64,000 nucleotides of DNA, from NCBI GenBank assembly GCA_963790025.1, contig CAWBMP010000004.1:1568001-1632000 (forward strand), given 5' to 3'. A model generated the notes under the pieces. It was not told the origin of the DNA and made no database searches. It worked only from the letters and a program-made list of their open reading frames with translations. The stretch is from Nitrospirota bacterium. GTDB taxonomy: Bacteria > Nitrospirota > Thermodesulfovibrionia > Thermodesulfovibrionales > Dissulfurispiraceae. The stretch's first letter is position 1. Every line of letters begins with the position of its first letter. The position numbers and the translations under genes are program-made. Of this stretch, positions 29,006 through 39,329 are shown piece by piece.

Positions 29006-30445
29006 TCACACAATCGGTTTGAATTGTTTCATCATAGCTGGTTTCTTATCCAATATTTCAGAGATCAGCCATATAGTGACTTCGTTCTGAAACTTTTGAA
29101 TCTTACAACCCTTTTCGTAAGGCATTTTAAGGTCGCCATTGTACTGGACATTATTCGCCGGGCACAATCCGCCACAGAGATACCTGGACCAGCAACTGAT
29201 GCACTCCTCACACTGGAACACAAAACCCCTCAACTGTTGACATAACCTGTTCTGTTTGTCAATCTTGAGACCGGTGTCGACGTCCCCTAGCTTGTATTCC
29301 TCGATGCCGACAAAGCCCATGCATGGGTAAAGATCTCCTGATCCTGAGACGCAAAGGCTATTGATTCCTGCACCGCAGGGCGTGGTTTTTGGAGTTTCAT
29401 AATACACCTTGGCTATGTTATTGCTCATCACGACATCGGTTGCATTGTCCTTTTCCAACAACTCCTTCAAATAGAAGTGTGCAAACCTCAGATATTCTTT
29501 CTTCATGTCCTCTAAATCTTCGTCAGAAATGACAAAGTTGCCGTTTCCATTAAAGAGCTTGCTTGCCTCATTTGCAAATCCGACCTCGACATCGGGAAAG
29601 CCCATGTTTTCGAGGAATTTGTAAACCTCCAGTTTTTTCAAATTTGGCGGCGCAAGAGTCGCTTTAATGGATACCCCGACTTCATTGGTGTCCATTACCC
29701 TTAAAACATTCGAAATGACAGTATTCCAGCTTCCCCTTCCATCCTGATACGGGCGATTGAAATTGTGGTTTTCTTTGGGCCCATCGAGGCTTACACCTAT
29801 ACTCAGCCTCCTGGACCTCAAAAACTCGATGATCTCATCGTTCATTACCGTCCCGTTAGTTGTGAGCTTGTAGTCAAACTTTCGAATGCCCCGGTCTTTT
29901 ATTTGATTGCAATAGTCTATGGTAGACTTTATAACCTCGAAATTCAGAAACGGTTCTCCGCCGTAAAAGTCCACCGTGATTTCGTCGTTCTCAGTTGAGT
30001 GCTGCACGAGAAAGTCAATCGCCTTTATCGCGGTCTCTTTGCTCATTTTCCCTTCACTTTTTCTGACGTATTTACCGCCGTCGTTCCAGCAGTATCTGCA
30101 ATGCAGATTGCATCCGGCGATCAAGTTCAAGGTGAAAGTTACAATCCGTGTCTTGAAGTGTATGTTTTCCGGCGGGAAGTAAGAATGTTTGGTTTTTTGA
30201 AACAGCACCCCTCTTCGTTCCAAATCCCGAATTTCTGCCATGGCGTCTTTAACCGCCACTTTCGGGTATTTACCGTGAAGCTTCTGCAGGATATCGGAAT
30301 CTGAGTTAATGTTCCACAATTCAAGGACATCTCTTGCCACGGCATCGATCCTGAAAAACTTCGCGCTCTCGACATCAAAAAGCAGCGTCGTGCCCTCAAT
30401 ATCAAAGATATGCACCTGCTTGTCTTTTAAAGTCTGCATCATCAT
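29006..30445 (-). CDS. Radical SAM/SPASM peptide maturase with N-terminal RRE (ranthipeptide-synthase-like)
   Basis: N-terminal wHTH/RRE-like segment (LLFDVES..FFRID...EIRDLERRGVL), CNLHCRYC, FYGGEP, TTNG, SLDG, SPASM CGAG..LYPC..CISC..LCGGLC; ATG overlaps the upstream stop (ATGA at 30445-30442). Confidence 0.93.
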   Translation of the reverse strand: MMMQTLKDKQVHIFDIEGTTLLFDVESAKFFRIDAVARDVLELWNINSDSDILQKLHGKYPKVAVKDAMAEIRDLERRGVLFQKTKHSYFPPENIHFKTRIVTFTLNLIAGCNLHCRYCWNDGGKYVRKSEGKMSKETAIKAIDFLVQHSTENDEITVDFYGGEPFLNFEVIKSTIDYCNQIKDRGIRKFDYKLTTNGTVMNDEIIEFLRSRRLSIGVSLDGPKENHNFNRPYQDGRGSWNTVISNVLRVMDTNEVGVSIKATLAPPNLKKLEVYKFLENMGFPDVEVGFANEASKLFNGNGNFVISDEDLEDMKKEYLRFAHFYLKELLEKDNATDVVMSNNIAKVYYETPKTTPCGAGINSLCVSGSGDLYPCMGFVGIEEYKLGDVDTGLKIDKQNRLCQQLRGFVFQCEECISCWSRYLCGGLCPANNVQYNGDLKMPYEKGCKIQKFQNEVTIWLISEILDKKPAMMKQFKPIV

Positions 30446-31860
30446 TGTTTCTGAAGCGAAGAGGTGCACTTCTTTATTTGAAGCGCTATGGTGCACTTAT
30501 CAAACTCGGCAGAATTCCTGCATTTGTTTGTCTTCTGCTTATCAGAAGTGCACTTATTTACCTGGATTTCAATGGTGCAATTGTCTAACTTTTCAGCAAC
30601 TGTGCACTTGTTATCTATCTGGGCATTGGAAGTGCACTTATCTACTTGTGTTGTATTGTCGCATTTATCCCATTGCGCCGCATACGTGCACTTATTGTAT
30701 TGTTCAGCTGCGCCGCATCGATTATTCTGCAGTTCAATAGTGCACTTGTTGAACTGTGCGTCTATAGTGCATTTATTGTATTGCGCCTGATTGGTGCACT
30801 TGTTTACGTTTTCTTCCGCAACACATTTATCAATTTGCGCTGCCGTAGTGCACTTATCAAGCTGGTACGCAACCGTGCATCTGTTGGTCTCGGCAGGAGT
30901 CGTGCATTCGTTCGTTCTCTGCTTATCTGATGAGCACTTGTTCACTTGTATTTCCGCTGTGCATTTGTCGATTTGAGCATCAGAAGTGCACTTATCAATC
31001 TGGTACGCAACCGTGCACCTGTCGAGCTCGGCGGCTGTCGTGCATTTCTTTGTTTTCTGGTTACCGGATGTGCACCTGTCTACTTGTGCCTCTGTTGTGC
31101 ATTTGTCGATTCGTGCCTCGACAGTGCACTTATCAAGCTGATACGCAACTGTGCAGTTGTCGACCTCGGGAGGAGACTGGCACTTGTTTGTTTTCTGGGT
31201 ATCGGAAGTGCACCTGTTTACTTGTCCCTCTATCGTGCACCTGTCAATTTGCGCTGCAACCGTGCACTTGTTGATCAGCTCATCCACGGTACATCTGTCA
31301 AATTGCGCTGCAACCGTGCACTTATTGAATTGTTCGTTCATAGTGCATCTATTGTACTGTGCCGCACCGGTGCATTTATTTATATGTGCCGGCATGGTAC
31401 ATTTGTCCAGCTGTGAATCTCTGCTGCAATTATTGAACTGATACGCAATCGTGCACCTGTCAATATCGGCAGCACTCTCGCACTTGTTTATTTTCTGGTT
31501 AGCGGAAGTGCATTTGCCTACTAGTCCCTCTACAGTGCATCTGTCAAATTGCGCTGAAATCTTGCACTTATTGAATTGTGACTCAATTGTACATCTGTCA
31601 TGTTGCGTATTTGAATTGCACTTGTTGATCTGTTCCGGTATAGTGCATTGATCACGTTGTGTATCAGTGATGCATGGCCTTTCTTGTGTCTCTAATTTGA
31701 ATTCCTGCAGATTTTCTCTCCGGGTTGCAGCAGTTATTTTCCCGTCAGTTTCAGATTCGTGACTGCCGGCGCTGTGACCTTCCGCATCAATGTTTGACAA
31801 AGGCACGATATGTTTCGATTTAGAAACAACTTTCCCTTTTTTTATTCCCTTTGTTTTCAT
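30442..31860 (-). CDS. Cys-repeat protein: 62-aa leader plus 45 Cys-initiated 9/10-aa repeats; putative giant RiPP precursor
   Basis: 472-aa ORF, AAGGGGGAG SD, strict Cys periodicity, coupled to the rSAM/SPASM gene. Confidence 0.85.
   Translation of the reverse strand: MKTKGIKKGKVVSKSKHIVPLSNIDAEGHSAGSHESETDGKITAATRRENLQEFKLETQERPCITDTQRDQCTIPEQINKCNSNTQHDRCTIESQFNKCKISAQFDRCTVEGLVGKCTSANQKINKCESAADIDRCTIAYQFNNCSRDSQLDKCTMPAHINKCTGAAQYNRCTMNEQFNKCTVAAQFDRCTVDELINKCTVAAQIDRCTIEGQVNRCTSDTQKTNKCQSPPEVDNCTVAYQLDKCTVEARIDKCTTEAQVDRCTSGNQKTKKCTTAAELDRCTVAYQIDKCTSDAQIDKCTAEIQVNKCSSDKQRTNECTTPAETNRCTVAYQLDKCTTAAQIDKCVAEENVNKCTNQAQYNKCTIDAQFNKCTIELQNNRCGAAEQYNKCTYAAQWDKCDNTTQVDKCTSNAQIDNKCTVAEKLDNCTIEIQVNKCTSDKQKTNKCRNSAEFDKCTIALQIKKCTSSLQKQ
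30445..31674 (-). repeat. Degenerate 27/30-bp coding tandem repeat array (45 units)
   Basis: recurring plus-strand GTGCAC(T/C)T motifs; protein consensus C-T-x-x-x-Q-x-[DN]-[KR]. Confidence 0.95.
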
Positions 31861-31991
31861 GATGTGCTCCCCCTTTCATATAGTTACAGTCGAACGGAAA
31901 CCAGTCTATACAGCAATGTCGGCTAAACATATCGCGCGCCTTACTGCGGGTTCGCTGCTCATATCACGGTCCAGAGATGTATCAGTTTTCA

Positions 31992-32151: not shown

Positions 32152-32673
32152 TTATCTGATGACCCGGTCCGTGCCTGATAAAGCTTGTTCGATTTCCTGG
32201 AGAATGTCCTGTTTGAGCTTTGGCAGTTCTTTCCTAAGCAAATCGGCGGACGTGATTTCCTTGGGTATGGCCTCAAATCTTTTGCTGACGGCGTCCAGCA
32301 AAAGATCTCTTTCCTGCCTGCTCTGTTCATTTGAGGACCGGGAAGGAACTGCGGCCTTAACAAGCTGGGCCAGCTGGTCGTTGCTGAGGGCAAGCCTCGC
32401 ATCGATCGAGGCGAGCACGTTGAGCACCTGGTCGAGTTTGTCAACAGTCTGCCTGGATGAAACAGCAGAGAGCTGGGCTATATCTATCATTTGTCCCTGG
32501 CAAGAACCGGGCAGAGAAATATCCGTCGGCCTCACCCATCTGCCGAGACAGACCTGTGGCCCGCCAGGGCCGTTTATGACCGTATATTCGTCAATTACCA
32601 GAGACCAGACAGGCGCTGCACCGGAGAGGACAAAAATCAAACAAATTGCAGTAGCACAAACCAGCTTCTTCAT
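32152..32673 (-). CDS. Hypothetical exported protein with coiled-coil C-terminus
   Basis: signal-peptide-like MKKLVCATAICLIFVLSGAAPVWS; GGAGGAG SD. Confidence 0.75.
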   Translation of the reverse strand: MKKLVCATAICLIFVLSGAAPVWSLVIDEYTVINGPGGPQVCLGRWVRPTDISLPGSCQGQMIDIAQLSAVSSRQTVDKLDQVLNVLASIDARLALSNDQLAQLVKAAVPSRSSNEQSRQERDLLLDAVSKRFEAIPKEITSADLLRKELPKLKQDILQEIEQALSGTDRVIR

Positions 32674-38622: not shown

Positions 38623-38949
38623 ATGAAAAAGGGTGAGATGGCAAAAAAGGGATTATATACCGGAGCAGGAGCAGGATTGGTCTTATTTGCACTTATGGGG
38701 TTGCTGCCCGGGTCATTTATAGGCGGCGTCATCGGGATCAACATAGCGGGCAGTATTTTTGGGCTGCCGTTGGAAGCAACGGTGCTGCCGAGGATCATAG
38801 TTGGAGCATCTATGGTAATGGGAGTGATGCTGGCCGGGGTGGTATTTGTTGTGGGCAGTGCATTGATCGGCTGGCTCATAGGTCATGCTGTTGATGTTGT
38901 TAGGGAAGGCAGGACCGTTGTCGTGGAACATACAATTAAAAGCGAATAA
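38623..38949 (+). CDS. Gly-rich small membrane protein (paralog 1)
   Basis: AGGAGG SD; MAKKGLYTGAGAGLVLFALMGLLPGSFIGG. Confidence 0.85.
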   Translation: MKKGEMAKKGLYTGAGAGLVLFALMGLLPGSFIGGVIGINIAGSIFGLPLEATVLPRIIVGASMVMGVMLAGVVFVVGSALIGWLIGHAVDVVREGRTVVVEHTIKSE

Positions 38950-38981
38950 TAAAATACAACACAATAAAGGAGGAAAATAAA

Positions 38982-39329
38982 ATGTCAACCAGCAGCAGGC
39001 ACGGAAGCGAGAATGAGATGGCAAAAAAGGGATTGTATATAGGTACAGGAATGGGACTGATACTGTTTGTCCTGGTGGGACTGCTTCCTGGAATATTTAT
39101 CGGGGGCATGGGCGGATTGAAGATTGGGGAGATACTGTTCGGGGCCGTATCAGCCGGGGCGATAATGCCGAGACTGATTGTTGCCTTTTCCATGATACTG
39201 GGGCTGCTTATGTCGGCGGTTGTTTTTATTGTCGGGTCCGGAGTGCTGGGCTGGACAGTGGGTTTTATAGCAGATGCGGTCAAGACCGGCAAGGTTACGG
39301 TGACAGAGACTGCTGAAAAGAATGCCTGA
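38982..39329 (+). CDS. Gly-rich small membrane protein (paralog 2)
   Basis: AGGAGG SD; MAKKGLYIGTGMGLILFVLVGLLPGIFIGG. Confidence 0.85.
   Translation: MSTSSRHGSENEMAKKGLYIGTGMGLILFVLVGLLPGIFIGGMGGLKIGEILFGAVSAGAIMPRLIVAFSMILGLLMSAVVFIVGSGVLGWTVGFIADAVKTGKVTVTETAEKNA

Follow-up and report, generated by a model that had tools for sequence, protein, structure and literature searches.

The window analysed here, a stretch of 64,000 nucleotides in all, contains two overlapping genes on its minus strand. The first (30442..31860; delimited by an ORF recount, with homologs found by phmmer) encodes a repeat protein of 472 aa with a Cys at about every ninth residue, the putative substrate of the enzyme encoded next to it, and a Shine-Dalgarno-like purine run (31867..31875) lies 6 nt 5' of its ATG. 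Its stop overlaps, as ATGA, the start codon (ATG, 30445) of an ORF of 479 aa (29006..30445), which was recognised as an RRE-radical SAM-SPASM enzyme by HMMs, structure and alignment. The repeat protein is composed of a Cys-free leader of 62 aa (31675..31860) and a core (aa 63-472; 30445..31674) of 45 Cys-initiated units of the type C-T-x-x-x-Q-hydrophobic-[DN]-[KR], and 9.5% of its residues are Cys. Our recount reproduced the figures of the preliminary description: the first Cys at residue 63; 38 units of 9 aa and six of 10 aa, the series closing with one of 8 aa; Thr directly after Cys and Gln at +5 in 34 of the 45 units each; Asp/Asn at -2 in 41/44 and Lys/Arg at -1 in 39/44. In agreement with the preliminary description, which saw no hydrophobic signal peptide, the leader lacks any hydrophobic segment (the highest hydropathy over 15 residues is 0.23), and unlike the homologs it has no twin-arginine motif; since an in-frame stop lies directly upstream of the ATG, the ORF could not be extended to include a signal peptide. 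A promoter scan of the locus gave nothing above shuffles.

The regularity of this Cys ladder is far from random, with 44 consecutive spacings of 9 or 10 residues against a maximum of 4 in 10,000 shuffles, and it is unique among the 8,280 open frames of at least 100 aa in the window's genome, the runner-up being a run of six. Because the units are diverse (37 distinct sequences among 38 nine-mers) and pN (0.17-0.21) is below pS (0.34-0.51) in duplicated 46-aa blocks within the ladder, it appears to be a protein under selection and not a translated minisatellite. These five-unit blocks, present in three tandem copies that are 63-65% identical (30853..31266; TRF period 138, 3.2 copies), are, judged by their sequence, a recent internal expansion. 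Neither Pfam nor NCBIfam matched the repeat protein at E<=0.1, and the precursor models for CXXX-repeat and Cys-every-fifth peptides did not match it either; AlphaFold2 gave no fold (pLDDT 36), and an Atlas search with it returned no usable match.

The enzyme carries an RRE domain (aa 11-77; 30215..30415), a CxxxCxxC motif (C112/C116/C119; 30089..30112) that is invariant in 21/21 aligned clade members, and a SPASM domain with seven Cys conserved in the alignment (357, 375, 415, 418, 424, 428 and 447; 29105..29377). The RRE-like segment noted earlier matched Pfam weakly (PqqD, E 0.082) and was clear in the AlphaFold2 model, with three strands (11-33), three helices (35-77) and pLDDT of 91-97 for the blocks of residues 11-80; it also aligned to the N-terminus of CteB. 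No NCBIfam cut-off was passed by the enzyme: the best scores were 278.6 bits for SCIFF (TIGR03974; cut-off 425), 274.1 for QhpD (TIGR03906; 453), 265.4 for nif11 and 257.9 for PapB (NF047865; 340), against 113.7 for anaerobic sulfatase maturases (anSME; TIGR03942; 349), and the models for CXXX-repeat (TIGR04115), Cys-every-fifth (NF038107) and CrpC-type (TIGR04463, rSAM_vs_C_rich) maturases gave 121.1, 114.9 and 99 bits against cut-offs of 350, 600 and 525, respectively. CteB/ScfB (PDB 5WGG) was the best match in both sequence and fold (PDB search, E 9e-65 vs 7e-16 for anSME; Foldseek TM 0.79 vs 0.62), and the two agree in the order of their domains and in the pattern of their SPASM Cys. Thus, the proposed grouping with the thioether-forming CteB/QhpD/PapB set rather than with the sulfatase maturases holds by NCBIfam, PDB and Foldseek comparisons. 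In a quick tree, which had no anSME or PapB row, the enzyme fell in a clade of its own, separate from the SCIFF maturases, and none of 12 clade members scanned passed the TIGR03974 cut-off. The SPASM loop after C375 reads C-[MIL]-G-F in this clade in place of the C-H-Q-F of CteB and the SCIFF maturases, so the chemistry may differ from theirs. At the catalytic-proximity positions taken from PMC10288494 the enzyme has W/Y/T/S/M/G vs F/F/T/S/H/Q in CteB, four of six being CteB-like.

The ladder gene and the gene for an enzyme of this one distinct clade travel together, and in the window they are translationally coupled. A ladder homolog is found directly upstream of the enzyme in all six other in-clade loci with DNA, on the same strand and within about 40 nt (3-24 nt in five of them), and no Cys-every-ninth gene occurred beside out-of-clade radical SAM enzymes (0/81 loci). 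The co-occurrence of the pair, on which the preliminary description had staked its claim, was therefore observed in 7/7 in-clade loci, the window included, from at least three phylum-level groups; this count covers loci with DNA, and outside it fall most of the 20 further enzymes found in databases at 41% or higher, the three nearest (P0001, P0003 and P0004) among them. In a set of 208 genomes of the phylum, both genes were present in the same four genomes, which had also served to build the profiles, and neither was present in the other 204. Distances between precursors and between enzymes among the six homolog pairs were not correlated (rho 0.23, p 0.41). The two-gene module is rare; viral contigs gave 62 loci with a best identity of 29%, none of them in the enzyme clade, and the matches to 107 plasmid records all lay under 60% identity (about 26-28% among the 40 matches listed). 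Two candidates were discarded: L087 (41% over 232 residues, no ladder), considered as a counter-example, belongs to an Omnitrophota clade (76% to L085), and the G194 match comes from a Pro/Ala linker read in a shadow frame.

The six homologs of the repeat protein (350-361 aa; phmmer E 1e-23 to 3e-31) are mutually only 36-60% identical, and their 30-31 units keep a near-fixed Cys register (spacing 13, 12, 9x7, 10, 9x15, 12, 9x3, 13, with small deviations only in 6/6), identity being 0.32 in the same register vs 0.17 off-register. Unit-order shuffles of the register between the window copy and the homologs, equalled in 2 to 63 of 200, give weak evidence only. Position +2 is Ser/Thr/Asp/Asn in 161/187 homolog units (background 0.35), Pro is found at +3 in 25/187 (background 0.03) and Gln at +5 in 110/187. 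This Gln goes with the Cys before it, since in long units it stands at +5 in 22/35 and at -4 in 1/35, and it is present in six of the seven terminal units. Thr at +1 is specific to the window (52/187 in homologs vs 34/45). An Atlas model of a homolog was poor (pLDDT 0.38), and its match to an ALTTAQ solenoid (TM 0.57) is a lead only, as are the PF27846 clusters that were its nearest Atlas feature matches (0.78). With regard to database searches, a single-sequence search at 259-826 aa (0/3,861 candidates) and a profile search at 30-191 aa (0/1,715) were both blank, which reflects the word filter, because phmmer detects the homologs directly. A profile search of 1.84 billion representatives, in which the best 150 of 155 matches were examined, contained at least four family members among the matches listed, P0035, P0038 and P0041 (fragments) and the more distant P0147. 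The other 146 were set aside as near-identical translations of minisatellites or as Cys-9 repeats of another kind (median identity between units, 0.63), and P0040 was rejected as a member by a within-unit shuffle test (86/200).

The homologs differ from the window copy in their N-terminal signal and their surroundings. All six, and three further proteins, have a twin-arginine-like motif, RRx[FAL][ILMV], together with an uncharged stretch of at least 12 residues; the Tat model TIGR01409 matched 0/6 homologs and was passed by P0147 alone, and TatC is present in 4/5 homolog genomes, which are incomplete. Common to the homolog loci is a downstream gene for a secreted acidic protein of CARDB/PPC/FlgD type; tblastn with this protein gave no match in the genome of the window. 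The window copy has been expanded to 45 units and has neither signal nor partner gene.

Within the leader, the motif KHIVPL (aa 16-21; 31798..31815) is the putative RRE-binding site; its His is invariant in 8/8 aligned leaders, where the motif is H-[IVM]-x-x-[ILM], and QhpC leaders, which start MKHLKPINN and MKHLTPAN (K-H-L-x-P), resemble it. Co-folding of leader and RRE scored 0.37 vs 0.02 for the best of three controls, a weak indication given that a like complex (CteB-CteA) had already been solved and that the mark, reached by 116/157 solved and 2/215 mismatched pairs, is reached at scores of 0.60 or below by only 18/157 solved pairs yet by both mismatched ones. The runs agreed in at least 80% of contacts, with a partner pLDDT of at least 49.

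Several known systems resemble the module. One is CrpA of Methanococcus voltae, a protein of 298 aa with ten 17-residue Cys motifs that is ranthionine-crosslinked by CrpC, as shown by MS (PMC13692751, Dieter et al. 2026). Here too a large Cys-repeat protein lies beside an RRE-radical SAM-SPASM enzyme with a seven-Cys SPASM, and the assumption that substrates of such enzymes are usually well under about 100 aa is thereby outdated. CrpA and its relatives (a 34-row BLAST table) are mostly rich in Ala/Gly, with a Cys about every 5-6 residues, whereas the window family is polar and strictly 9-periodic, with 31-45 Cys, and a short leader motif, to which the homologs add a signal of Tat-like type and a partner that is secreted. 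Substrates of the SCIFF type (six Cys, about 45 aa) differ from the window ladder, ScfA having about 49 aa as compared with 350-472 aa in the ladder family. QhpC of quinohemoprotein amine dehydrogenase, like the ladder protein as proposed here, receives its thioethers without being cut up, but its links number three within about 108 aa, it lacks a repeat, and no qhp genes lie nearby. PapB, in the case of freyrasin, forms serial Cys thioethers on one chain and tolerates distance from the leader (PMC9413430). It requires an acidic acceptor (PMC8172795), in Cys-X3-Asp/Glu; in the window, +4 is Asp, Asn, Glu or Gln in only 8/45 units. CXXX-repeat (TIGR04115, PF27846) and Cys-every-fifth (NF038107) peptides are likewise periodic-Cys targets of radical SAM/SPASM maturases, with periods of 4 and 5 instead of 9. 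Two attributes of a ranthipeptide-type (radical SAM non-alpha thioether) system are present, namely an RRE-radical SAM-SPASM enzyme related to CteB, PapB and QhpD and an adjacent Cys-containing putative substrate with a Cys-free leader that is conserved with the enzyme. From its sequence, the module looks like an undescribed relative of the recently described enzyme-crosslinked proteins; it is not a wholly new category, because large Cys-repeat substrates are already known from CrpA/CrpC.

We consider it reasonably probable that the enzyme takes hold of its substrate by the KHIVPL leader, which resembles that of QhpC, and forms many Cys thioethers along a single protein that stays uncut. By what is known of the enzyme family, the RRE would bind the leader motif, the seven-Cys SPASM would, like that of CteB, keep one auxiliary iron available to a Cys of the substrate, and the 5'-deoxyadenosyl radical would take a hydrogen from a side-chain carbon near this Cys, so that a non-alpha thioether closes. 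Repeated along the chain, the cycle would yield one multiply stapled protein and not a pool of peptides. The acceptor may tentatively be placed at +2, by analogy with CteB, which joins Cys32 to Thr34 (PMC8172795); Gln at +5 is a weaker candidate, Asp/Asn/Glu at -2 has about the same modest chance, and some other residue is less likely still. Each unit may be a short capped helix, with Ser/Thr/Asp/Asn at +2, an excess of Pro at +3, then Gln at +5 and a hydrophobic residue at +6, in which case the product would most likely be a rod of stapled mini-helices. This capping fits the homologs better than the window copy, in which +2 is Ser/Thr/Asp/Asn in only 19/45 units (background 0.36). Once modified, the proteins of the six homolog loci would exit via Tat and act extracellularly with their partner, probably serving as tough elements for structure or for binding, whereas the copy in the window would remain cytoplasmic or leave by another route. 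In the fullest version, the residues to which almost all Cys are stapled would be non-acidic (Ser/Thr/Asn or Gln), and the resulting rod of 31-45 mini-helices, each locked by a thioether, would in the homologs be exported by Tat and assemble with the acidic surface protein; this version is speculative and on balance unlikely.

Among other explanations, it is fairly unlikely, though conceivable, that the enzyme modifies only a few of the Cys, leaving most free, or that its product is of a different type (a sactionine, a C-C link, a thioaldehyde or an oxidation of the formylglycine type). The changed active-site loop and the Trp/Tyr in place of Phe/Phe would suit this, as would the fact that no acceptor residue is invariant (the highest conservation of any non-Cys position is about 86%); modification of CrpA is mixed and partial, being shown at up to four of six Cys in one fragment only (PMC13692751), and whole-length similarity can mispredict chemistry (PMC10288494). 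Against this, every unit retains its Cys in register even as the other positions vary, and the SPASM Cys pattern is that of CteB and CrpC. It is improbable that the ladder serves disulfides or metal/Fe-S binding, as a solenoid or metal sponge, with the enzyme only maturing the leader or aiding metal loading. The 30-45 regularly spaced thiols and the Tat-like signals of the homologs, which are typical of cofactor-loaded proteins, agree with such a role, and metal binding was proposed by the CrpA authors (PMC13692751). However, the ladder has no CxxC-type pairs, its Cys numbers are odd (45, 31), the lag profile of the homologs is flat, with no period-2 pattern, DsbB and VKOR were each found in 0/5 of the incomplete homolog genomes, and the window copy has no export signal. 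A slim chance is left for a combinatorial precursor, as suggested in the preliminary description, in which about 45 cyclised cores would be released at Lys/Arg-Cys bonds as a peptide library. It would explain the basic residue before Cys and the diversity of the window units, and the partner matches PPC (pre-peptidase) weakly. But Lys/Arg stands at -1 in only 54/181 homolog units, the register there is fixed, the partner shows no catalytic peptidase domain and gave no tblastn match in the genome of the window, and no protease or exporter was seen among the neighbour genes scanned. Finally, it is very improbable that the two genes are unrelated neighbours and the enzyme a sulfatase maturase or active elsewhere: the window enzyme is the anSME model's best match in the genome, but at 114 bits it is far under the cut-off of 349, it has an RRE, and adjacency holds in every in-clade locus with DNA.

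If many thioethers are indeed formed, whole-protein radical SAM chemistry, as in QhpC and CrpA, would extend to a second, unrelated substrate type with its own enzyme clade, and the fixed register, helix-capping pattern, export-like signal and partner would be first hints of a role for stapled proteins. The fully stapled rod would contain far more radical SAM links than any characterised case found, in a structural protein whose length is tuned by repeat expansion, as in the 45 units of the window. An enzyme that can set staples by the dozen, with no need for an acidic acceptor, would be a useful tool for protein engineering, and the two-gene copy in the window offers a simple test system. Its neighbours there are ACT, DUF711 and nitroreductase genes, and the flanking ACT-DUF711 pair has a different context in G007. 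No RNA data set was among the sequencing runs listed as containing the sequence. Contig pieces of sample X1 match the window without differences, and X1 may be the source sample.

The gene at 30442..31860 (-) encodes the ladder protein, a 472-aa product in which a 62-aa leader without Cys precedes 45 Cys-initiated units (38 of 9 aa, six of 10 aa and one of 8 aa), and its stop codon overlaps the ATG of the 479-aa radical SAM (rSAM) enzyme gene at 29006..30445 (-). Our recount agreed with the preliminary description on every count given there. In total, 44 consecutive spacings measured 9-10 residues, against a maximum of 4 across 10,000 shuffles, and none of the genome's other long frames (8,280 in all) contained such a ladder. 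A 138-bp block occurred in about three copies within the gene, and amino-acid changes among them were fewer than silent changes (pN 0.17-0.21 vs pS 0.34-0.51). GC content was 44.7% for each of the two genes and 47.4% for the genome, in which dsrA and TatC were both detected. Ladder proteins had no convincing match among Pfam and NCBIfam models, and structure prediction of the repeat protein gave no fold.

The enzyme matched Radical_SAM and, weakly, PqqD in Pfam. The N-terminal RRE suggested earlier was also present in the AlphaFold2 model of the enzyme (pLDDT 87), with three strands and three helices. None of the 25 NCBIfam models listed among 76 matches passed its cut-off; the top bits/cut-off values among those listed were SCIFF 278.6/425, QhpD 274.1/453, nif11 265.4/518.7 and PapB 257.9/340, with anSME (113.7/349) and TIGR04463 (99/525) weaker, and the enzyme belonged to no curated family tested. 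CteB, rather than anSME, was the nearest solved relative by sequence (E 9e-65, vs 7e-16 for anSME) and also by fold (TM 0.79 vs 0.62). Seven SPASM Cys were conserved in every clade sequence covering those positions, which is the CteB pattern leaving one auxiliary iron open (PMC6231123). At six CteB proximity positions defined in PMC10288494, the clade had W/Y/T/S/[MIL]/G vs F/F/T/S/H/Q.

Of the 33 proteins that a search with the enzyme retrieved (E<=1e-60), 21 had an identity of at least 41%. P0002, a 99% identical copy of the window enzyme with a frame shift in the SPASM region, was excluded from the alignment; it is probably an assembly error, because the window version aligned over its full length with all relatives. 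A quick, midpoint-rooted IQ-TREE analysis (59 rows) placed the window enzyme together with 26 other rows (including some duplicates, the group having been picked by identity prior to the tree) on the same side of a branch (SH-aLRT 97), separate from the SCIFF and QhpD rows (100 each).

Scans of contigs gave 79 rSAM loci from GTDB and 80 from JGI. Among 163 loci, Cys ladders were found solely in the window's own locus and in L005-L009 and L084 from other contigs, whose enzymes scored at least 776 bits with the clade profile (next loci, at most 402). Enzyme and ladder are thus linked, with a ladder in 6/6 other in-clade loci and 0/81 out-of-clade loci. L005 and L006 were labelled Krumholzibacteriota, L007 and L009 came from the same phylum set and L008 was labelled Eisenbacteria. 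Within this 208-genome set, both genes occurred in the same 4 genomes, which had also served in building the profiles, and in 0/204 others. In the window's phylum, the enzyme was found in 1/401 genomes and the ladder likewise, after removal of one shadow-frame match. The module is rare and patchily distributed, and we infer that it was gained horizontally.

The six homologous ladder proteins (350-361 aa, 36-60% identical) had one common Cys register with small deviations, and units were more alike at the same position (0.32) than out of register (0.17), which fits a single folded protein. Lys/Arg at -1 (before the next Cys) fell to 54/181 units and Thr at +1 (after the unit's Cys) to 52/187. 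The features retained were, among 187 units, S/T/D/N at +2 in 161, Pro at +3 in 25, Gln at +5 in 110 and a hydrophobic residue at +6 in 114, together with D/N/E at -2 in 130/181. The +2/+3/+5 pattern matches the helix N-cap and capping-box signature, and therefore Gln at +5 may be structural rather than an acceptor. The window copy fitted this pattern less well (+2 S/T/D/N in 19/45 units; 37/45 with Ile/Val added). Downstream in 6/6 homolog loci was a 632-682-aa protein with CARDB and FlgD/sorting-type matches; the four compared were strongly acidic and 34-46% identical, and tblastn of these four found no match in the window's genome.

At the N-terminus, each of the six homologs combined RRxF[ILV] with a hydrophobic stretch as a Tat-like signal, after which came H-[IVM]-x-[ML]-I-G; the Tat model TIGR01409 matched none of them. 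The database protein P0147 had a TIGR01409-positive signal and then KHIVPI, the window leader contained KHIVPL, and QhpC leaders from two plasmids started with MKHLTPAN and MKHLKPINN. The co-fold of leader residues 11-40 with enzyme residues 1-98 gave weak support for binding, scoring 0.37 where three controls reached 0.02 at best; at least 80% of contacts agreed between runs, and the partner had a pLDDT of 49 or more. The co-fold mark was reached by 116/157 solved and 2/215 mismatched pairs, at <=0.60 in 18 of the 157 and in both mismatches, and a like complex has already been solved. In five incomplete homolog genomes, TatC was found in four, and DsbB and VKOR in none. A Tat-like signal would suit a substrate modified before export by a cytoplasmic, oxygen-sensitive enzyme.

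The linkage and coupling of the two genes, the class of the enzyme, and the conservation of register and motifs are shown by these results. In its mode of action the module is a candidate ranthisynthase-like system. On balance, we favor a model in which the RRE would bind the leader His motif, and radical H-abstraction followed by Cys thioether closure would repeat along the chain to give one stapled protein. PapB tolerates leader distance and in-line motifs (PMC9413430). CteB joins Cys32 to Thr34 on co-expression (PMC8172795), so that +2 ranks first as candidate acceptor. Against stapling count the lack of a predicted fold, the differing active-site loop and the finding that no acceptor position in the ladder units was invariant. 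The preliminary description knew of no family with this periodicity and size. The family is real and, as far as searched, undescribed, but giant Cys-repeat substrates are already a known kind, since Dieter et al. 2026 (PMC13692751) showed that the repeat protein CrpA (298 aa) carries ranthionines. No 9-periodic Gln/Asx-unit protein was among the entries examined in its table, and no paper on this ladder family was found in full-text literature, a coverage mostly outside subscription journals.

Several other features were noted. In the window, a 173-aa protein at 32152-32673 (-), 290 nt upstream of the ladder gene on the same strand, had a signal-peptide-like start, a coiled-coil-like C-terminus and only sub-threshold family matches, and two small, hydrophobic paralogs in tandem at 38623-39329 (+), ORFs of 108 and 115 aa that both begin near MAKKGLY, had no Pfam match at E<=0.001. 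Among the hits of the ladder profile search, P0040 (686 aa, membrane-anchored-looking) contained 28 consecutive Cys-9 units of the type C-x-S-x-x-x-P-x-N; a shuffle test ruled it out as a ladder homolog. P0136 (510 aa, RRTFLK) had Cys repeats of 9-10 residues rich in Pro/Asp. A separate rSAM/SPASM clade (L010, L012-L016, L018, L085 and L086; labelled Omnitrophota or Planctomycetota) had a C-T-[AS]-F loop, and the members scanned passed no NCBIfam cut-off; directly upstream of the rSAM gene in 9/9 loci checked was a conserved 26-28-aa ORF ending FC(R/G)C(G/S)RVLW, likely a small RiPP precursor family. In G031, a genome of the host's family, another unclassified rSAM/SPASM gene was immediately followed by a 105-aa ORF (L002:370-687 (-)) that has five Cys, a hydrophobic region and the sequence RRSFLKK, a second Tat-like, Cys-rich candidate substrate. 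Finally, a 210-aa, 15-Cys ORF with an RRELLRR-type start lay upstream of a PapB-like rSAM gene (L092:1486-2118 (+)).
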